Below are positions 6,211-36,289 of a DNA stretch of 64,000 nt, in pieces. The translations under genes were made by a program, and so were the position numbers. Under the pieces are notes generated by a model, which saw only the letters and a program-made list of their open reading frames with translations, had not been told where the DNA came from and did no database searches. Every line of letters begins with the position of its first letter. Positions within the stretch are counted from its first letter, which is position 1. Origin of the DNA: Eledone cirrhosa (lineage: Eukaryota); assembly GCA_964016885.1 (NCBI GenBank), contig OZ024742.1, positions 32,178,001-32,242,000 on the forward strand, written 5' to 3'.

Positions 6211-6264
6211 CTGTCTGATGAGGTCATAGCCATTCAATGGCTATCATCGAAATATATATAGCAG
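6211..6264 (+). ncRNA. Type I minimal hammerhead ribozyme
   Basis: ctgt-CTGATGA-ggtc atagcc attcaat ggctat catc-GAAA-tatata-TA-gcag. Stem I ctgt/gcag, hairpin stem II and palindromic stem III. Confidence 0.8.
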
Positions 6265-6457: not shown

Positions 6458-7842
6458 TTGATATTGTCGATTTTTACCCTTCTATTACTGTTTCCTTATT
6501 AACTAAAGCCTTAGATTTTGCAAGACCCTTCATTAATATCTCCAAATTAGAAGAGGACATTATCTTTCACGCTAGAAAAACTTTACTTTTTACTAATGAT
6601 AATATTTGGGTTAAAAAGTCAAACCCTGAAAACTCTTTCGATGTTGCAATGGGTTCTTATGACAGTGCGGATGTGTGCGACTTAGTAGGATTATTCCTTC
6701 TCCACACACTCAAGAGAAATTTCCGTCCCATAATATCGGTTTATACCGTGATGACGGATTAGCAGTTTCTCATACCACCAATGGCCATAATCTTGATAAA
6801 TTCCGTAAAGATTTAATTAGTACCTTGCTAATCTTAACCTTAAAATTACTATAGATACGAACCTTACTAATGCTAACTTTCTTGATATTAATCTTGATCT
6901 ACTTACTGCCTCTTTTAAACCCTATCATAAACCTAATGAAAATCTTAGGTATATACACAAAGAGTCTTGCCATCCCCCTATAGTTTTTAATAATCTTATT
7001 CCTAACATTAGCCGTAGGATTTCTACCTTATCTTCGTCTATAGACATTTTTAATAAAGCCGCCCCTTATTATAATAAAGCCCTTAAGAACAGCGGTTTTA
7101 CAGAAAATATTTCTTATTTACCTACTCCCCCCCCCTAAAACTAACCATAATAACAGGAAAAGGAAGATTATTTGGTTCACACCCCCCTTCTCTCTAAATG
7201 TCAAAACTAATGTAGGAAGGAAATTCCTTGAACTATTAGACAAACATTTTCCTCCTATTCATAGATATTATAAGATTTTTAATAGGAATGTAGTTAAGAT
7301 CAGCTACTCTTGTTGTCCATCCATGAAGTCCAAAATCACCAGTTCAAACCGTACGAGGATAAATCCAGGATGCAGTTGCAGGAAGCCGGATGAATGCCCA
7401 TTGCAGGGTAAATGTAACACAAAATCTGTCGTTTATGAGGCTAAAATAAACGCCAGTTATCAACAACCAGCCAGCCAGAAGCGAGCGATATGTCGGTATG
7501 ACCCAGGACAGGTTTAAAACCAGATTTTACTCACATGTCGCTTCTTTTAAACACTCAGATAAACGAACTTCAACGGCCCTCGCAAGTAAGGTATGGGATC
7601 TCAAGGATAGTAATATCCCGTACTCTATTGATTGGTCTATATTAGACCATTCGAGGGAGTACCAAAGGGGCACAAAGAATTGTTCTTTGTGTACCACAGA
7701 AAAGTATAGGATTTTGCTAAACTTGAGAGACACTTCCGCTTGCCTTAACTCTAAGACTGAGATCTTCAGATGCTGTCCTCATCTGAAATCGCATCTGATC
7801 TGTAACTGGATTGACACTCCTACGATAAATCAACCGCCTTGA
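6452..7842 (+). pseudogene. Penelope-like element ORF (RT plus C-terminal GIY-YIG endonuclease), 5'-truncated with several frameshifts
   Basis: RT: FDIVDFYPSI, MGSYDSADVCDLVGL, IGLYRDDGL, NFLDINL, YIHKESCHPP. Linker: KRKIIWFTPPFS and CSC..CPLQGKC. Endonuclease: VVYEA..YVGMT..FKTR, CSLCTTEK..LN..CPH. Confidence 0.92.
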
Positions 7843-9908: not shown

Positions 9909-9986
9909 AACAGGGGGAGAAGAATACTGCATGGTTGCACATGGATTACATATTATAAAATTAGTCCCTCATCAGTGATTTGCCAA
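9903..9986 (-). mobile_element. 3' fragment of the permuted-hammerhead element family
   Basis: The reverse complement ttggcaaatcaCTGATGAgggactaa...atgtaatccatgtgcaacc aligns by eye to 20342-20418. Confidence 0.65.
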
Positions 9987-12877: not shown

Positions 12878-14638
12878 TCAACTAAGTTTTGTTTTTGTGG
12901 TATATTTATCTACGTCAGTTCTACGAATGTTTTCTTGTATAGCTGTCCTTACTGCTTGACTGGAGGAGAAATCATCAACCAGAACGATATTTAGTCTGTA
13001 TTCTTGTTCTCTATCTGACCAATGTCGGATCATAGAGTTGATACCCTTGTATATTACCTCTCCGTTACCTTTAGATGGATCGTCGCCACAAAGATTAGCT
13101 ATTCGGGCCATTTCTAATAGATTTGTGGCTTTACCCTCAAATCCAAAAAGTTTTAGTATAGTTCTATGTTGTAAATGTCCTAAATAAACAGATATTGTTA
13201 TAATCAATAAGTATATCACAGTAATTCTAGCGGCTTTTAATGGACTCCGTCTTTTTAGTCCAGTACAGAAGAATTTCGTAAAGTTCCTGTTTTCTGAAGA
13301 TTGGATTAAACGGTAAAACATTATTGTCAATAGTAAAGAAAGAGCCCAAGCCACGCGTTGGCTTCTTAGAATTCCTCCCAAAATGTTGGGGACATTGTGT
13401 GTTACAAAAGCCGGAGTGATGGCCATTTTGTTAGGAAAATTCCTTTTATATTTCTGCATGATGTCAGAACGATGTGTAAACATACTCCGAGGATTCGTTC
13501 TTCGTTCAAACATTTCCACAGCTGTTTCGTTGTTGACATCGCTCCAGAAATAATCCGGGAAGGCATTCACTAAATCTTTATCTTCCCGAATCAGAACAAT
13601 AACATTACGTCCCGTGGAGATGACACTTAATAAGGTAGGGTTTAAAGAAATGTTCCGTGTAGGGACAAGATTTGGTCCTAAAAGAGATATCAAATATTTA
13701 CCAAGTTTGATCTTTGACTCAACTGGCATTGGTAATTTCTCTTGAAATCCATCACCTGGGACATTTAAGTGAGATATCAAAAGTATAATGATCTCGCCCG
13801 GATTTTCCTTTGCAAAACTAGCAATTTCTTTTAAACCGGATTCAATGCTTTCTCCAGATATTCCATGCCACCAGTAAAATCCTCCATTTGGTAGCAAGGC
13901 AATACGTAAATCAAGACATCGGTAGCCAGCTTTAAGTTGGGCACCCAATCCGTCGTCATGGTTTCGAGCCCACGAGCTGAAATAGTCCCTGAATCCAAGA
14001 CTTAAAGCAACACGTGAAATCCAAAGTTTTTCCACCAAAGTACCATTTGGTGATACAGAAAAAGATGCGCTGTTATGAGTGCCCGGAATAACCAAGTCAC
14101 CCAATCGAGCAGTGTTCAAACGACGCCTCAATAAAGTCATCCACCTTTGAAAACATGTACTTTTCCATCGACCCCAAGAAAATATTGAGTGGTGTTGGGG
14201 GTTTTGTACACCAAGACCACCATATTCATGGACATTGGTATTGAGGTTACTATCTTTAACAATGTTCGAATCAATTGAGTTGATGTAAGATGAAGCGATT
14301 AAAGATGCAGGTTCTCTTCGTTTGGTAAAATCCAGAAGAGACCAGTTTTCGTTGACACAAATATTATTTAAATCCCTTTCACAAGGCACTATATTGTCAT
14401 CCCAGATTTCTAAACAATAACTTGCTGGTTGCTGAGCCAACTGTCTCTGTAAACGCCTTCGCTGTTGTTGGTATTGGTATTGAGAAGATTCCTGAGACTG
14501 TGGCTGTCCATTGTGTGACAAGGGATCGAACTTACTAGCTGCTGGTATAGGAGACGATGTCACACATATGCAACTGTGGTACAATATAATAACCATTATA
14601 ATAATTCTAACGGAAAGCTGTGACTTTCTGTGGCTCAT
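12878..14638 (-). CDS. Phosphatidylinositol-specific phospholipase C X-domain (PLCXD-like) protein, 586 aa, single uninterrupted ORF
   Basis: Motifs LVIPGTHNS, AQLKAGYRCLDLR, WHG, ENPGEIIILLISH and LNIVLVDDF are characteristic of PI-PLC X-only TIM-barrel proteins. Hydrophobic N-terminal signal-like segment. ATG at 14638 and TGA at 12878. Confidence 0.88.
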   Translation of the reverse strand: MSHRKSQLSVRIIIMVIILYHSCICVTSSPIPAASKFDPLSHNGQPQSQESSQYQYQQQRRRLQRQLAQQPASYCLEIWDDNIVPCERDLNNICVNENWSLLDFTKRREPASLIASSYINSIDSNIVKDSNLNTNVHEYGGLGVQNPQHHSIFSWGRWKSTCFQRWMTLLRRRLNTARLGDLVIPGTHNSASFSVSPNGTLVEKLWISRVALSLGFRDYFSSWARNHDDGLGAQLKAGYRCLDLRIALLPNGGFYWWHGISGESIESGLKEIASFAKENPGEIIILLISHLNVPGDGFQEKLPMPVESKIKLGKYLISLLGPNLVPTRNISLNPTLLSVISTGRNVIVLIREDKDLVNAFPDYFWSDVNNETAVEMFERRTNPRSMFTHRSDIMQKYKRNFPNKMAITPAFVTHNVPNILGGILRSQRVAWALSLLLTIMFYRLIQSSENRNFTKFFCTGLKRRSPLKAARITVIYLLIITISVYLGHLQHRTILKLFGFEGKATNLLEMARIANLCGDDPSKGNGEVIYKGINSMIRHWSDREQEYRLNIVLVDDFSSSQAVRTAIQENIRRTDVDKYTTKTKLS

Positions 14639-14995
14639 TAGTCTAGTTAACGGAAGACATGAACAAAGTTTAATACGTGAAATTCAACGTACTTTGAACA
14701 GGTGAAATACATAGACACACCTTCATTTGAAAAGAGAGAAATATTCAGCCAGAATGAAACGTTGGCTATGTTTTGTGTTATTGTTTCTCAAAACAACATA
14801 TTTTCATTGTATTTAAGGCAGACTTCCTTTCTTCAGCATGCTCCTTGTTCTTCGTTATATTCCAAAGATTTTTCAATTAAATTGTTTATGCTAATTAGGA
14901 ATTAAAAAATATATTATATAAATAATTAAAAAGAAAAAAATATTAATTCAGTCCTAATATTTATACCCTGTAGTGGCGACACGTTAGATAAAATG

Positions 14996-19994: not shown

Positions 19995-20738
<744 letters not shown>

Positions 20739-24904: not shown

Positions 24905-25311
24905 TATATATTCTCTTTCGTCTACGATTTCACAGAACTTATGTTTACCGAATTCGCAGACCAGACCCCTTCTTCCTCCCGTTAGACCTGTGCGAAATTC
25001 CTTCCGTGCTCACATTTCAACCAGGTTTGATGGTCTTTATTCTCTCGTTCACGATTTCACCGAACTTAAATTCATAGAAATCTGGGACTTGTCTCCTTCT
25101 TCCTCACTTTCTGTTGCCTCACCATTTTGTTTGTTTACCCTCGCGTCCCCTTTATTTACGTGTCCCAACGACTTTTTTTAGCCGTTGCTCGCACCAACCG
25201 GAGGTATATGGTCTTTAAAGCGATGAAATGCCTATGATAGTTGGAAGATCACTGATGAAGGACAAACTTTTTTCATATGTAACCCATTTGCAACTCCGCA
25301 GCGCCCTTATT

Positions 25312-27575: not shown

Positions 27576-27694
27576 CAGGCAAGCAGACAAACAGATAAAG
27601 AGAGACAGAGTGGTAAACACACGCACAAATATATATATATATGTACATATATATATATATATATGTACATATATATATATATACATATATATAC

Positions 27695-28261
27695 CCGTCT
27701 ATTTCGTTCTTACTGCTTCCTCTTTCTCTGTATCTTTACCCTCTCTAGCAGTCACTCTCTCTGTTAGCCTCTTCTTCACCCTTCACTCACTCATTCTCTG
27801 TTACTACCTCTCTTCCTCCTCCTCCTCCTTCTTCCCGTTTGACCTGTGCGTAATTCTTTTCTTTCGCACCCTTGGTCTGGCAGGTCGCTTTTTTTCTCTC
27901 TCTCTCGTCTACGATTTCACAGAACTTACGTTCACCGAATTCACAGACTAGATCCCTTCTTCCTCCCGTTAGACCTGTACGGAATTCCTTCCTTGCTCAC
28001 ATTCCATCCAGGTTTGATGGTCTTTATTCTCTCTCGTTCACGATTTCACCGAATTTAAATTCATAGAAATTTGGGACTCGACTCCTTCTTCCTCACTTTT
28101 CGTTGCTTCACCATTTTTGTTTGTTTACACTCGTGTCCCCTTTATTTACGTGTCCCAACGACTTTTTTTAGCCGTTGCTCGCACTAACCGGAGGTATATG
28201 GTCTTTAAAGCGATGAAATACCAATGATGGTTGGAAGATCACTGATGAAGGACTAAATTTA

Positions 28262-28819: not shown

Positions 28820-29254
28820 TTCCCAGCTCGAGCCGGTGGGGCTGGACTGAAGAGGATGGCAAAAGGCCAGATGGTATGACCATCTTCCCGTTCCGCAGTG
28901 GCAAACCCCTCGTATGGGATGCCACTTGCAGCGACACTTTCTGCAGCCGCCACCTGGTGCAGTCTGTGACTAACCCAGGTACTGCTGCGGGGGGGGGGGG
29001 CTGAGGAGGCGAAACTCTTCAAGTACCGGTCGCTCTCCGACAGGTTTGCGGTTGTACTCTTGGCAGTGGAGACTTCTGGTGTCCTCCGCCCTAGGGCTAC
29101 CTCCCTACTCACCACCATAGGCGCTGAGCTGGCCAGCAGCACGTGTGAGCCTCGCGAGCTGGAATGGCTTTTCCAGCGCGTCTCCCTTACCGTCCTCCGG
29201 GTAAACGCCTTTTCCATTCTGTCCGCCGGGGCTGTGGGGAGGCCACCAATATGA
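28820..29254 (+). pseudogene. Restriction-like endonuclease (RLE) C-terminus of a CRE-clade non-LTR retrotransposon, degenerate
   Basis: With frameshifts and a stop it reads EPVGLD..DGKRPDGMTIFPFRSGKPLVWDATCSDT..AEEAKLFKY..AVETSG..LFQRVSLTVLRVNA. Confidence 0.8.
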
Positions 29255-29475: not shown

Positions 29476-29782
29476 TGAAGGCGTTTCTCCGAAGGATGTT
29501 GAAGGAGATCGGTTAAGTTACTTGTATAAAACATAACCTGCCTAAGGAAGGAGCCCCGTGAGGTGGAGTGGCTGCTGTAGCGGGTTTCGCTGGCCGATCC
29601 CAGCTCTGACTGGTGTGTAGGGTCTGTCGCTACTTCCGCCTCTTCCCTTCCCTCCTTTTATTTCTTTCCTTTTTCTCCTATTCTTCATTTCCTTATTGCT
29701 TTCTATAAATATTTCTGTAAATAGAGACAACTCAAATACAGCCTTAAAAACAATATATTTATGTGTATATATATATATATAT

Positions 29783-29837
29783 ATATATTGTCTTTAAAGC
29801 GTTGAAATATCCGAGACCCCAGTAGACAACTGATGAG
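29783..29837 (+). ncRNA. Divergent permuted-hammerhead motif
   Basis: ata-TA-ttgtct ttaaagcgtt-GAAA-tat ccgagaccccagt agacaa-CTGATGA-g. Confidence 0.65.
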
Positions 29838-30114
29838 GAAAACAGCCCCCCACCCCACCCCCACGTTCTTGCTTTCTTAATTTTAAGCTTATATCTATCT
29901 ATCTATCTATCTTGATAGAGTAAGACACGCTTCGCATCGGCTCCGCTATTCCATCGGGATTTACCCTTACTATTGTAAGTACCGGATAAATTTTTTAGTG
30001 CAACACATTTGGAACACTAACCCCTGTTATTTAGGGAAACATTTTTGCATTTACCCCCTTTTTAGGGGGTAAAATAAATATCTATTTTTGCCGAAAAATT
30101 TCTTTCTTGGCAGC

Positions 30115-31950
30115 ATGGCGGAAAAGATGGCAGACATGTCTGCCATTAGCTCTGCCACGCCCCCCAAGTCTGAAGAACAAAAAATAATTACAACAAAATT
30201 AGACATTGAAACAAACAAACAAAATGAAAAAACAAATGTTAAGGAAAATGAGCAAACAGAAAACAAACAAACAGAAAATAATACAAATAACGACAGGGCA
30301 ACTTTCGCCCAGAAAACAAAGCAATCCATTACATACACACCAATTGACCTAACTGCCGCCAGAGAAAAACTGGCCGAAGCAAAGAAACATATTGTTTTGG
30401 GGGAGAACGGAATGTTTTCCATTAACTCCCCCCCAGAATTCAAGAAAGCCAGAGCAGAAAACACAGTTATATACAGAACTATACTAAACCAGTCAAGAAA
30501 GCCAGCACAGCCCAGCCAAATGGAAATAGAGTTAGTCCTAAAAGACTATATGAAGAATATTCTCTTCATACGAAAGGACCGACTCTATGGCAGCATTTCG
30601 GTCCTAACAAGAGACAAAGAAACGGCGGTTCAGCTTTCCCTAAGCCCACTCTCGTCGACAACATATAGCTTCTATCCCTCCTACATGGGTAGAAGAACAC
30701 AGAGAATAAAAGTAAAAACAATGCTGCCCACAATGGACTTCTGGTGGGCTATTGCTGGCTTCATTGATATGGGCGAAGACACTATGCTGTCAATGGGGAA
30801 GGCAACTGGAGATGCGTTCCTGGGAATGGGCCTCGACATACTAGTCCAAATGAGGCCCGAAAGAATAGCACAAATCCCGGATCGCATCTGGCTGGATGAC
30901 CTTACCCCAATAGACATAATTGTAGAGGGGAGAAGACCAGCATGCTATTTATGCATGGAAAGGGGACACGTTAAGGCTAACTGCCCGAAACGTATCCCCC
31001 AAAAAGGACTATTGCCCACACCCACCACAAACAGTACACCAGCACCACCCACCTCCAAAAATACACTAATACCACACACAGCAAACAAAATACAGACACC
31101 ACCAACCACAAACACAACACAAACATCACCACCACCAGCACCAAACACAAGCACGACACAAAAATCACCACCACCAACCACAACACAAACATCACCACCA
31201 CCATTACCAACCACAAGCACGACACAAACATTACCACCACCACCACCACAAAACCCATTCCAAACAAATAATAAAAAAAACAGTAACAAATCTACCCCTC
31301 CCGCAAAAAAAAAACAACCACACAACACGTCCCTCCCACCTAGCGCTGAAGAGTTTCCCCCAACTTCTGAAGAAGAAGGAGGAGAAGCCTTCAGACAAGT
31401 TAAAAGAAAAAAAAGAAAACACACACCCAGCACACCACAAATAACCCACACACAAACACCAACTCCAATCAAAAACACCCCACCCTCAACAAACAAAAAT
31501 AAATCTGCGCCTCCCCTCTCCGAAACATTGACAGCATCACAAAAAAAGACGTTGCAATACACATATATAAATAAAGAAAACAAAAAACTGGTTAAATTAA
31601 TAAACAATAACCCTATGGTGCAGACCGAAGGGCCAAACTTTATCTCAACAGAGAACTTCACCCATTTAAAAATGATAAAGGTCCCTCTGGACCTTTATCG
31701 TTCCTTAAAAGAACAATTTAGACGGGACGTGAGCCCCCCCTGTTTAAAACCGTTGAATCGCGTCCTCTTGAAATATTTCCCCATAACCGCCCCTCTCCCT
31801 GACACAACTCCAAATACCCCAACCCCACCACACACGTGTACCCCCACACCACCACAAAACATCCCTCCACCCAACACACCTGATGCCATGGAAATTACGC
31901 AACCCGGAGAGGTAAGTGCTTTTCTTTCTTCACTTTCAACACCAAAATAG
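30115..31950 (+). CDS. LINE ORF1 nucleic-acid-binding protein with CCHC zinc knuckle and Pro/Thr-rich tail
   Basis: Open frame of >600 codons with first ATG at 30115 and the motif CYLCMERGHVKANC. It lies directly upstream of ORF2. Confidence 0.85.
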   Translation: MAEKMADMSAISSATPPKSEEQKIITTKLDIETNKQNEKTNVKENEQTENKQTENNTNNDRATFAQKTKQSITYTPIDLTAAREKLAEAKKHIVLGENGMFSINSPPEFKKARAENTVIYRTILNQSRKPAQPSQMEIELVLKDYMKNILFIRKDRLYGSISVLTRDKETAVQLSLSPLSSTTYSFYPSYMGRRTQRIKVKTMLPTMDFWWAIAGFIDMGEDTMLSMGKATGDAFLGMGLDILVQMRPERIAQIPDRIWLDDLTPIDIIVEGRRPACYLCMERGHVKANCPKRIPQKGLLPTPTTNSTPAPPTSKNTLIPHTANKIQTPPTTNTTQTSPPPAPNTSTTQKSPPPTTTQTSPPPLPTTSTTQTLPPPPPQNPFQTNNKKNSNKSTPPAKKKQPHNTSLPPSAEEFPPTSEEEGGEAFRQVKRKKRKHTPSTPQITHTQTPTPIKNTPPSTNKNKSAPPLSETLTASQKKTLQYTYINKENKKLVKLINNNPMVQTEGPNFISTENFTHLKMIKVPLDLYRSLKEQFRRDVSPPCLKPLNRVLLKYFPITAPLPDTTPNTPTPPHTCTPTPPQNIPPPNTPDAMEITQPGEVSAFLSSLSTPK

Positions 31951-31955
31951 ATCAA

Positions 31956-34900
31956 TTGAGAGTTGGCTGTTTGAACGCGCGTGGCCTGAGCTCAGCTTGG
32001 AAGCAAGCAAAGCTTCTAAGTGACCTCAGGTCACAAAGTATAGATGTGATGGTTGTTTGCGAGAGTCGGATCAGCAGCGTGAGACAGCTGGCGCCCGCCT
32101 TCGATGACTTTGAGATGCACGCATCTCTCTGTCAACCCGGAGGCGGGGGGGGGAGTTGCCGTACTGCTGGATAAACGTCTGACTCTCGACGTACAGATTG
32201 TTCACTCGGACCCGGGGGGTCGATTACTGGTGCTGGACGTCGGAGGTGGTGAAGGCGGGGCTTTCAGACTGGTCGGTCTTTATGCTCCCTTCGGGGCGGA
32301 GAGAGCCGACTTCTTCCAACGTCTGGAGACTTTTCTAGGAACGTCGCGTTCCCTGCTTTTAGTGGGGGACTGGAATGGAATCCTAGATGCGCGTTGGGAC
32401 TATGCAGGGGCATGTCCCGATAGAGGGGGGTGTAGCAGCCTCAAGGGGTTACTCGATCGATTCGACCTGGTCGATAGATTTCGACTAGATTGTCCAACTG
32501 CGCCAACCTGGACCTGGGCAAACCGCAGTGGACAATCTAGATCGTACCTAGATAGGTTTTTGGTTAGGAGTAAGGATAGGGACGTATTTAGTTGTCCAGA
32601 ACTGATCATGGTTGGCTATTCAGATCACAAATTAGTGACCTGCGTGGTCAACCTTGATAGAACGCATAGACAGGGTCCCGGTTACTGGAAGATGAACTTG
32701 TCCTTGCCGGCAAAGAAAGATTACAGGAACCGGATTAGTAGCTTAGTTAAAATGCGGTTGACGGGAGCGATTGTCAACAGTAGGTGGTGGGTATCTCTAA
32801 AGAGAGAGATTAGAGTAAGTTCGATAGGTTACAGTAAGGAACTAGCGGCGAATAGAAATAGGAAGGAAAGGGAGTTAACAGATAAACTAGAAGAGGCGAT
32901 TAGGAGCGGAGACGTAGCCAGAGTGTTAGCGGCGAGAACGGCGTTGAGCCAGTTCTTTGACGCGAAACACGAAGGCTGCGTTGTCCGAAGTAAAATACGT
33001 GCTTTAGGAAACGAGGGGACCAAAGCTGTTAGCTGGGCCCGCGTGACAGAAGCCAAGAGTGGGATTAAATCCACCATTCGGTCTTTGCGAGACCAGGATG
33101 GACGGGTGATCCTTGAACCTGAGCGGATGTGCGAGGCCTTTCAAAGGCACTTTGCTCGACTGTTCGGAGGGGGCGGGGGGCCGGACGGGGATGTGGACTT
33201 CGGTCCATACCTCGACGGTCTACCGCGTCTTTCGAGCGGCGAAGCGGAGTGCTGCGAAAGGCCAATCACAGCCACTGAAATCGGGGAAGCGCTCAGCCAA
33301 TGCAGCAGACGCAAATCTCCGGGTCTCGATGGTCTACCATACGAACTTTATTTAGCTATGCCGGTCTTGTTCTCCGAACTCCTCGAGGCTGTCTATTGCA
33401 ACTGGCAACAGAACGGGAGAATTCCCTGTTCTGTGACCAAGGGCGTGGTCACGCTAGTGAGGAAGGACGAGAGCAAGGGGGACGACTTAAGTAACTTTAG
33501 GCCCATAACTCTGCTGAATGCAGAGTTACAGATTTTGGCCAAGGTGTTGGCGAAGAGGTTGGCGCTTGTGGTGGGTGGTTTGGTGGGAGACGCGCAGACA
33601 TGCGCTATCCCGTCCAGGTCCATTCACGACAACCTCCACCTCATGCGATACATCATAGAGAGGGTTGGCTACGAACCCGGCTTTGGTGGGGCCCTGATCA
33701 ACTTGGATCAATCTAAGGCGTTCGATAGGGTCGACCATGGTTACCTGGATGCGGTGCTAGCGGCGGCGGGCTTCGGACCCGTTTTCAGGGGCTGGATTTC
33801 TGCCATGCACAGTGGCAACATCTACTCTAGGATTAAAGTAAACGGCTACCTCTCGGAGCCGTTTCAAATCACCCGATCCATCAGACAGGGGTGCCCCCTC
33901 TCCTCCCTTCTGTACGTATTGACTCTCGAGCCACTGCTGCGGAAGTTGGAGTTTCTGCGGGGCATACCCCTGGAACCGGGATTGCACAAAGCGGTCTCGG
34001 CCTATGCCGACGACGTAACAGTAATGGTGGCGGACGCCTCGGAAATCGGGGCGATCGCCACCCTACTGGAGGAATACGAAAGGCTGACGGGGGCTAAGCT
34101 GAACCAGGACAAGTCAGTCGGTTTGCAACTCGGAACGTGGAGGGGCAAACCGATGCCGTTAGACGGTGTCGTCGGGCGGTGGACGGAGGGCCCGGTGAAG
34201 CTGCTCGGGGTCTGGTTCGGACCGGACCTCCAGGTGGAGAAGAATTGGGGCGAGGTGACGAGCAGGGTGTTTGCGCTGACCCAGAAGTGGGCCAAGTGCA
34301 AACTATCACTGAAAGGTCGGGCGGAGGTGACGAACGCTTACATAGCGTCCGTCATCTACTACCGCCTGACCGTCGTGCCTTGCCCCAAGGAAAAGCTCAC
34401 CATCATGGAACGCATGCTCTTCCAGTTCCTCTGGAAGAAGCGGCCTCCCATGGTGAGGAGATCCATCCGCTGCCAGCACCCTTCGAAAGGAGGGCTGGGT
34501 ATGCCGTGGCTGTTGATGCGTAGGCACGCATTGAGGCTACGGCATCTACAGGTATTCCTCAACGGTCAGCCGGTGTGGGCCCCGTTTGTGAGGCGAGCCT
34601 TCCCACAGCTCGTCTCGCTCACCGAACTGCAATCCTGGGTGAAGCAAAGACCGAGAAAACTGGGCAACTGGCACACTGAGTGTGCCCAGGCGCTCACGGC
34701 TATCTGGCAAGCGGACCCGACTGTCAGTGGAGAATCCACCTCGACATTCTATAGAGGGTTGGTGGCTAGCAGGGGCGACGACACCCTTGGAGAGTCACTA
34801 GGCATGGAGGAGGACGAACTGGCCAGCCTGTTCGGTAGAACTTTCGGCCCGGGACCCATGGACAACTTCCAGAGGTCCCTAGCCTGGCAGTGTTACCGGG

Positions 34901-35385
34901 GGGCTCTGCCCGTTCGAGAAAAGCTCTACAGACACGGACGCCCGGGCAGGGATCCCGCGAAAAAGATCTGTCCCAGATGCGTGCGCGACGAGGAAACCGT
35001 TGCGCATGCACTGGTACACTGCCCGGGCGTTGCCGATCTGTGGGGCTACGTCGAACGACTGCTGTCGCGTGTGGCGCCGATTCGATTAACCGCCGAGTCT
35101 GTGGTGAACATCAAGCCGCCTCCTCCCTTCAGAAATGAAGCAGAGGCAGTCTTTCTGTGCGTAATAGCCATGATGAAAGAGGTTGTGTGGTGGACGCGCC
35201 TGAAAGGTCTGAGGTCGGGTGACTTTCTCTCCGGCCATCACCTGGTTTACTTCTTCCGATACCACTTCGGAAGAAGAATCAGGATGGAGAGAGAAGTGCT
35301 TGGTCCCAGACAGTTTTATGAAAGGTGGGTGAAAGAAGCGAGAATGGCCCGTGTAAATGGGCCTTCTCTCTACATTGTTCTGTAG
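31956..35385 (+). pseudogene. LINE ORF2 (APE endonuclease, RT and C-terminal zinc finger) with one frameshift in a G9 run at 32145-32153
   Basis: APE: CLNARGL, VCE, GGGVA, GDWN, SYLDRF, SDH. RT: KSPGLDG, FRPITLLN, DQSKAFDRV, QGCPLS, YADD. C-terminal CPRC..ETVAHALVHC. Confidence 0.92.
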
Positions 35386-35645
35386 GTGAAGAAGTGAAGA
35401 GGAAAGGGGGAGCGCCTCCTCTCTGGGCTTCCCCCGCGAAAAGAGTTGCACACTTTTCGGGGGTATGTGCAATCCCCAACACGCCCCCTCCCTTTTGAGG
35501 ACTTTTTATTGTTATATTATTATTGTTATTCCTTTTTTCTTTACTCGATTTATGTAAACTCCCCCACTGTGTAAATGTCCCCTTCTTTTGTGCCCTCGTG
35601 GCAAATAAATAGAAATTTATCTATCTATCTATCTATCTATCTATC

Positions 35646-36159
35646 AAAAACGAAGGAGAGGCGGTTTTCCTTTGTGTGATAGCTATAGCGAAAGAGGTTG
35701 TATGGTGGACAAGGTTGAAAGGGCTGAGGTCAGACACCTTTCTCTCCGGCCAACAACTGATTCTTTTTTTCAAATACCACTTTGGAAGAAGAATCAGGAT
35801 GGAGAGAGAGGTGCTGTACCCCAGCAAGTTTTATGAAAGGTGGGTGAAAGTGGCGAGAATGGCCCGAGTGAATGGGCCTTCTCTCTATATCAGCCTGTAG
35901 GTTGAGGAAAAGGAGGAGGAGAGGAAAGGAGTACAAGCTCTTCGTACTCCTGGAGATGAGGGTTGCACATTTTTTTCGGGGGTCTGTGTTACCCATATAA
36001 ACTGTCTCCCTCTATTGGGGAAAATCGACTAACTTTTAAATTCCATCTGTGATAACATTTTACACGTTTTTATTGTATGTAAACTTCCCCCTTTGTATTT
36101 GTCCCCTTCTTTTGTGCCCCTGTGGCTAATAAAGAAATATAAAAAAAAAAAAAAAAAAT
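35646..36159 (+). mobile_element. 5'-truncated copy of a related Tx1/L1 subfamily with poly(A) tail, between two (TATC)n tracts
   Basis: KEVVWWTRLKGLRS..RMARVNGPSLY parallels the end of the full ORF2. AATAAA and an A-run are followed by TATC. Confidence 0.9.
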
Positions 36160-36240: not shown

Positions 36241-36289
36241 CTCACTCTTAGTACATATATTGTTTTTAAGGCTATAAGTTGTGTATATA

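Follow-up and report, generated by a model that had tools for sequence, protein, structure and literature searches.

The window analyzed here is a stretch of 64,000 nucleotides of genomic DNA from Eledone cirrhosa. At positions 29783 to 29837 the initial annotation had described a divergent permuted hammerhead, and on re-reading both its letters and its coordinates were confirmed. The motif belongs to a 5'-truncated repeat copy, here called the focal copy, which directly follows a TA run. The features assigned to the locus are listed below.

29753 to 29787 (+): (TA)n target run, the last five bases of which equal the native stem III 5' strand and the UA cleavage dinucleotide
29788 to about 29891 (+): 5'-truncated copy of subfamily B, about 104 nt, of a tandem non-coding repeat, ending on the 3' side within the +100 to +119 hot spot
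29788 to 29793 (+): stem I strand after the predicted scissile bond (29787/29788), with 6/6 pairs to 29824 to 29829
29794 to 29803 (+): 5-nt linker, then the helix P strand (at the stem II position in intact copies), then U11.1; the partner is absent at this locus (0/4 pairs)
29804 to 29811 (+): GAAA core and stem III 3' strand, with 3/4 pairs to the TA flank
29812 to 29822 (+): 3-nt bulge and GA of a predicted kink-turn, then the strand of the clamp helix (I'); the partner is absent at this locus (1/6 pairs)
29824 to 29836 (+): stem I 5' strand and CUGAUGA core, as read in the sequence
29837 to 29843 (+): helix Q strand after CUGAUGA; the partner, which is the most upstream strand in intact copies, is absent at this locus

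Three intact copies of the ribozyme motif were located upstream in the window.

20262 to 20364 (+): intact subfamily A ribozyme, predicted cut before 20310; stem I 6/6, stem III 4/4, I' 6/6 and P 4/4 pairs
25161 to 25263 (+): intact ribozyme of a subfamily A variant, predicted cut before 25209; I' 5/6 pairs
28151 to 28253 (+): intact subfamily A ribozyme, predicted cut before 28199; it ends a nearly full unit that starts near 27694

The compensatory changes described initially in stem I were recovered: the focal strands TTGTCT/AGACAA and the strands TGGTCT/AGATCA of the three other copies in the window each form 6/6 pairs, and they differ by one double change (G-C to U-A) and one change from G-U to G-C. 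The 20-nt core of the focal copy had 306 exact matches in the genome and its reversed control had none, so the motif is not a chance occurrence. No hammerhead was found among the 29 Rfam matches at 29700 to 29900 (up to an E-value of 10), nor among the best 150 of the 192 Rfam matches in the whole window. Two more conventional readings of the locus were rejected. A classical type I hammerhead with a second cleavage block 3' of GAAA lacks a partner strand for stem III, and pairing the strands that adjoin CUGAUGA and GAAA as stem II would give 1 to 2 wobble pairs at most.

A near-complete LINE is located at 29912 to 35617 (+), with open reading frames at 30073 to 31950 and 32083 to 35385 and matches to RVT_1, Exo_endo_phos and, weakly, zf-RVT. 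It sits in a (TATC)n run directly 3' of the focal copy, and a second 3' fragment at about 35646 to 36150 ends in poly(A) and (TATC)n; we take the LINE to be a microsatellite-targeting element of the Tx1/L1 type. A frameshifted fragment at 28849 to 29254 (+) contains an RPDG...WDAT motif and presumably represents the restriction-like endonuclease of CRE-type retrotransposons; Pfam searches gave no match for 28849 to 29248, nor for 7044 to 7514. The sequence on the far side of the TA run, 29560 to 29770 (-), faces the opposite direction and shares a short start with 36245 to 36275 (+) (the sequence at 36250), which suggests that another TA-targeting repeat may lie next to the focal copy. Hammerhead cores of the ordinary order (type I) were recognized by eye at 6215(+), 18621(-), 20837(-), 20978(+), 36408(-), 37987(-), 38366(+), 53128(-), and 59601(-); they have a short palindromic stem III, some are arranged in inverted pairs, and they are typical of Penelope-like elements. 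It was also noted that a 601-amino acid, intron-free open frame at 12878 to 14683 (-) presumably encodes a phospholipase C X-domain protein, and that a fragment of a sister family, here called family E, at 9975 (-) is clipped inside the clamp strand and joined to a TA run.

The repeat units are about 530 to 750 bp long, non-coding and pyrimidine-rich, with one motif per unit, and they occur singly, in tandem (with a maximum of nine units, in locus L078) and in inverted pairs, mostly at (TA)n. Searches of the genome with looser core patterns yielded 10,455 matches (56 for the control), 9,337 matches (0 for the control) and 158 matches (0 for the control); the two larger sets are disjoint, and the figure of about 19,800 cores is a lower bound. 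The open frame of an autonomous Naiad, with an N-terminal GIY-YIG domain and a C-terminal reverse transcriptase, was not seen in the units read, which were non-coding and ran head to tail. Similarly, the scan of the repeat loci for open reading frames revealed fragments of neighboring retroelements and no frame continuous with the repeat among those listed.

The conserved blocks are arranged in the order site-GAAA-CUGAUGA, and intact copies contain four helices in addition to stems I and III, all of which draw on sequence upstream of the cut. Helix P, which takes the place of stem II, joins the strand before GAAA to an upstream strand, and helix Q joins the strand after CUGAUGA to one located further upstream. 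Hairpin H sits between the Q and P strands, and helix I' is formed by the strand that follows P and the one immediately 5' of stem I. Covariation shows that the two strands flanking the core, before GAAA and after CUGAUGA, are not paired with each other; both are held by an upstream splint, Q-H-P, which turns the base of stem II into a four-way junction.

The six-helix structure was scored in 18 aligned copies, in which 93.0% of the cells were paired and 20 of the 31 pairs had double changes; these copies were hand-picked to span the subfamilies and are mutually related, so the covariation counts are inflated and the figures are not probabilities. None of 500 shuffles scored as high, and in slid controls 23% to 46% of the cells were paired. 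A four-helix count in 17 copies, including the focal one, gave 93.7% paired cells and double changes in 15 of 20 pairs. Among the individual helices in the 18 copies, stems I and III were paired in 96% and 97% of the cells, with double changes in 5/6 and 2/4 pairs, respectively. Helix I', the clamp helix, had double changes in all 6 pairs of the intact copies and is absent from the focal copy, and helix Q was the weakest, with 83% paired cells and register shifts between subfamilies.

Unselected loci drawn from the sets of 10,455 and 9,337 matches were also scored. Stem I was paired in at least 5 of 6 positions in 47 of 49 unselected copies, compared to 0 of 27 distinct metagenome sequences, and stem I, stem III, UH, I' and P were present together in 36 of 49 copies compared to 0 of 27. 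The metagenome control comprised 62 stretches that matched the same pattern, of which the 27 distinct ones were scored; none had stem I, and they were hence treated as chance matches. The core bases CUGAnGA, GAAA, and UH were invariant in 18/18 aligned copies. Position 16.1 was U in 49/53 copies and H17 was never G (53/53), both core words being part of the search pattern. Position 11.1 was U in 42/53 and C in 6/53 copies, and 10.1-11.1 is not the usual G-C pair. The initial annotation had claimed independent structural support for the fold, which was borne out for stem I and extended to stem III and four further helices, all of which covary across the subfamilies. On this evidence the predicted fold is well supported as real and not due to chance. 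It contains the core nucleotides of a hammerhead, with stems I and III placed around the cleavage site, and is predicted to self-cleave after H17.

A kink-turn consists of a canonical helix, a 3-nt bulge, and tandem G.A and A.G pairs. A 3-nt bulge followed by tandem G.A and A.G positions is located between stem III and I', and in the nomenclature of PMC6779385, as far as the accessible part of that source goes, the positions were conserved as G1b in 51/53, A2b in 53/53, A1n in 48/53 and G2n in 45/53 copies. In the 18 aligned copies, the bulge had 3 nt in 18/18, G.A was present in 17/18 and A.G in 13/18, with A.U in 5, including subfamily B, in which position 2n is U and not G. The segment between the core motifs had been described initially as an unrelated loop. 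Its length is fixed, its kink-turn A and G are kept in 53/53 and 51/53 copies, and its pairing to the upstream strand covaries; because the kink-turn positions and the I' pairing are kept, it is a conserved structural element. The sequence signature of a kink-turn is thus present, and the kinked fold itself is predicted.

The kink-turn is missing from family F (158 matches; loci L127 to L146), in which all six helices were recognized by eye with different sequences. Family F has G10.1-C11.1, a 5-bp stem III, a 7-bp stem I, and a 6-nt by 1-nt loop that replaces the kink-turn. It is an older family and provides a natural control for what the kink contributes.

For the focal copy, the suggestion that the TA run serves as a stem III strand holds to the extent that it provides 3 of 4 stem III pairs, but the run supplies no other upstream strand. 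The further proposal that insertion regenerates a cleavable site is unlikely, since the stem II partner and the strand of the I-II clamp are gone (P 0/4, I' 1/6, III 3/4). In the accessible account of SGC-3, a hammerhead with the same block order, breaking either stem II or the I-II helix abolished cleavage (PMC10085705), and the focal copy, having lost the partners of P and I', is predicted to be inactive or nearly so. It is a 5'-clipped, decayed fragment and a poor substrate for a cleavage test; the intact copies at 20262, 25161, and 28151 are the ones to assay.

The start of the element had been placed at 29788, the first base after the predicted scissile bond. Intact copies of the subfamily read ...GGTAGATATA before the cut, and because the last five bases of the TA run (ATATA) are identical to this native sequence, the junction can be anywhere from -5 to +1. 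The sequence GGTAGATAT(A/C) before the cut of intact subfamily B copies had 378 matches, and a hand count of the first 100 gave 53 A, 45 C, and 2 T at position 17. A C17 lies 5' of the bond and would be lost if a cut RNA were joined at its end. The focal copy belongs to a "short" lineage in which 5/5 native members have A17, and its nearest neighbors all have A. Since A17 is native to this lineage, the focal junction is uninformative. The TA-flanked B copies (n = 16) had 6 C, 9 A, and 1 T at position 17, which gave no sign of C17 depletion relative to the intact copies (6/16 versus 45 in the first 100; Fisher P = 0.79). Lineages were called by nearest neighbor, with leave-one-out calls correct for 81/104 copies in B and 48/59 in E, and the calls covered 14/16 and 30/33 of the TA-flanked copies in B and E, respectively.

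The 5' ends of subfamily B were mapped in 84 copies anchored at +1 to +20, taken from the first 100 of the 306 matches listed. The ends were spread over the whole unit, out to -806, and 15/84 fell within 0 to -14 compared to an expected 4.6% (P = 6e-6). Of these 15, 11 keep native bases upstream of the bond and no more than 4 fit an exact cut. Among B copies anchored at +33 (the first 30 of 768), the 5' end falls within +3 to +33 in 9 and at -10 in one, and in no case at +1. The 3' ends of subfamily B were concentrated at +100 to +119 (23/84) and +140 to +159 (37/84), together 60/84, and 44/84 copies continue straight into a TA run. The 5' truncation points, which had been proposed as a check on the predicted cut, are thus not random and are in excess across the ribozyme, but the excess lies on both sides of the cut and not at the bond. 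The 5' ends in subfamily B mark the ribozyme region, not the bond.

A different pattern was observed in family E. The 33 copies with a TA run directly before position 17 had 29 A, 3 T, and 1 C at this position, versus 61 C17 by hand count among 100 intact copies, the first of 1,504 (P = 6e-10), a comparison that mixes lineages; of the TA-flanked copies assigned to C lineages, 1/13 had kept C17. Loci L242, L244, and L249 each combine, within one insertion, a downstream tandem unit that has C17 and a clipped unit that lacks it. All these junctions are located at the bond or shortly 3' of it. There was no pile-up at the bond: the 32 distinct TA junctions listed included 3 at +1, 12 at +8, 4 at +10 and 6 at +15, at TA/AT microhomologies. 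By hand tally, about 330 junctions (twice the 165 reverse matches) fell in +1 to +17, versus 27 loci (all matches listed) in -2 to -27 among C17 copies, and only 2 of the 27 upstream loci were at the 3-nt microhomology just before the cut. The ends thus crowd into the 16 nt after the cut, and with estimated denominators the junction density per base falls about tenfold 5' of it.

The step in the 5' ends of family E suggests that cleaved templates were copied and hints that the RNA is cut in the cell. Cut templates trimmed to the nearest microhomology would give this pattern, and alternative causes of the step are a smaller number of A/T bases upstream and pausing of the polymerase. Subfamily B may lack the step because its native TAgATAT mimics the target. 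The earlier idea that a self-cleaved RNA was integrated into (TA)n is accordingly not supported for the focal locus and subfamily B, and a weaker form of it is supported in family E.

The mechanism that we propose builds on the block order, the covarying helices, the tandem non-coding units, the TA targeting, and the distribution of ends, which are direct observations. In intact copies, the clamp strand after the splint forms helix I' on top of stems I and II, as the covariation shows, and joins stem III through the kink-turn signature. The kink-turn would fold I' back along the core, which would allow the standard catalytic core to assemble and cleave after UH. Transcripts of tandem units would be cut to unit length and may circularize, by analogy with retrozymes (PMC7229834). 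The reverse transcriptase of a Naiad Penelope-like element may then prime on nicked (TA)n DNA at an AU-rich spot 100 to 150 nt past the cut, as suggested by analogy with internal initiation in the Poseidon element (PMC11167929). The cDNAs from uncut or circular RNA would give long and tandem copies, and cDNAs that stop in or near the ribozyme would be attached to the TA run through short microhomologies. For the focal copy, the microhomology was most likely provided by the native TAgATATA immediately 5' of the cut, and Q5', H, P5', and I' were lost. We consider it probable, with some confidence, that the focal copy is a 5'-truncated, likely inactive copy in (TA)n, that the intact copies contain a predicted hammerhead of SGC order, and that Naiads likely copy them.

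It is unlikely that the focal copy instead derives from a self-cleaved RNA whose cDNA was joined precisely at the scissile bond, with the TA flank rebuilding a cleavable site. The focal copy is compatible with a start at +1, and the enrichment of B ends in 0 to -14 (15/84, P = 6e-6) is in line with such a joining. So are the data from family E, where the +1 TA-flanked copies have lost C17 (1/33, and 1/13 in C lineages), where C17 is seen in the downstream but not in the clipped unit of L242, L244, and L249, and where the junctions drop from about 330 in +1 to +17 to 27 in -2 to -27. However, 11 of the 15 B ends keep native upstream bases, 0/30 of the copies anchored at +33 start at +1 and 9/30 start at +3 to +33, and C17 is not depleted in the TA-flanked B copies (P = 0.79). 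Even in family E only 3/32 junctions are at +1, and the TA flank restores neither P nor I'.

Two further readings concern the function of the fold. We find it quite improbable that the fold is real but does not, or no longer does, self-cleave, and that it serves as a platform for Naiad protein binding or priming, with the excess of 5' ends caused by a reverse transcriptase pausing in a tight knot. The non-standard 10.1-11.1 pair, the split stem II, and the raised density of B ends on both sides of the cut would fit this, as would the insertion of Poseidon in vitro, which, in the accessible part of that study, had no need for hammerhead cleavage and gave no reads that ended at the cut (PMC11167929). 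The preservation of the catalytic core bases and UH across divergent families in which the helices turn over, and the density step at the cut in family E, argue against it. There is very little to recommend the view that activity is confined to dimers or to neighboring units of a tandem array, with strands swapped between neighbors, and that the knotted topology never forms in a single unit. The units do occur in tandem, and axolotl retrozyme hammerheads cleave better as dimers (PMC7229834), but the single-unit fold could be closed by way of the conserved kink-turn signature, and the published Naiad ends that are accessible accommodate all of the strands in about 100 nt (PMC8557442).

Returning to the single-unit hammerhead of SGC order, we lean slightly towards the broader interpretation that animal genomes harbor active hammerheads by the tens of thousands, in a topology that has not been described before, with CUGAUGA split from its stem II strand, an upstream splint, and closure by a kink-turn, that this is the supposedly missing ribozyme of the Naiads, and that the step in family E is a record of cleavage in the germ line. 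Such hammerheads would move non-circular permutations from environmental RNA into animal genomes. They offer an answer to why Naiads seemed to be without hammerheads. Furthermore, the C17/A17 polymorphism provides a natural marker for whether inserted cDNAs came from cut RNA, which is an open question for Penelope-like elements.

In the accessible text of Eckert et al. (2023; PMC10085705), the three hammerhead blocks were assumed to be uninterruptible, which allows six possible orders, and according to Supplementary Note 1 the rearranged ribozymes were obtained from assembled metatranscriptomes. The motif described here resembles type SGC (HRIMA-1 and variants) in the order site-GAAA-CUGAUGA with all core bases, in the short linker that connects stem I with the strand before GAAA, and in a clamp helix with one strand just 5' of stem I and the other after the stem II partner (PMC10085705). 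It differs in that the stem II partner is located upstream of the cut and not 3' of CUGAUGA, in the addition of helix Q, hairpin H, and a predicted kink-turn, in having mostly U rather than C at 11.1, and in being a high-copy genomic repeat of an animal rather than of metatranscriptome origin. In type SGC, the strands adjoining GAAA and CUGAnGA pair with each other as stem II with G10.1-C11.1, whereas here both pair upstream. The motif is most readily understood as type SGC with an opening between A9 and the stem II strand, and we regard it as an SGC-like putative working variant and not as a member of the type. It breaks the rule of uninterrupted blocks, which would explain why descriptor searches missed it; the SGC descriptor requires CGAAA, CUGAUGA(U)G and pairing of the two adjoining strands as stem II (PMC10085705). 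In the openly accessible literature that was searched, we found no paper describing this motif in animals and no tested precedent for a hammerhead with a stem II strand that is non-contiguous with CUGAUGA.

The repeats also resemble the non-LTR retrozymes (Cervera and de la Pena 2020; PMC7229834), as described in the accessible text, in being non-coding tandem repeats with one hammerhead per unit that range from monomers to multimers and have a link to Penelope-like elements. However, the retrozymes have type I hammerheads and units of about 300 bp, whereas the repeats studied here have the S-G-C order and units of 530 to 750 bp, and circular RNA has been demonstrated for the retrozymes and is putative for the present repeat. 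The type I retrozymes were tied to Penelope-like elements by Li et al. (bioRxiv 10.64898/2026.07.22.740005), and the words "SGC" and "pseudoknot" are absent from the text of that preprint in the form accessible to us.

Naiads were described by Craig et al. (2021; PMC8557442), in the accessible part of the paper, as targeting (TA)n, as forming tandem, partly partial, and inverted copies, and as being without canonical hammerheads, with eight "half-core" cases. A search of the Eledone cirrhosa genome with a Naiad-type core pattern identified one decayed copy, and no autonomous Naiad beside these repeats. The repeats share the (TA)n targeting and the partial tandem and inverted copies with the Naiads and differ from them by the lack of an open reading frame in the units read here. 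By eye, several published Naiad consensus ends, from cephalopods and jellyfish, matched the strands of the repeats and their order, and the other ends among those listed gave no obvious fit (PMC8557442). Three jellyfish ends had the same strands and the same TTAAT linker as family E. In two cephalopod 3' ends the elements follow one another just as in the repeats studied here: Q, H, P, I', kink-turn signature, stem III, UA, stem I, CUGAUGA. The repeats are likely mobilized by Naiad Penelope-like elements.
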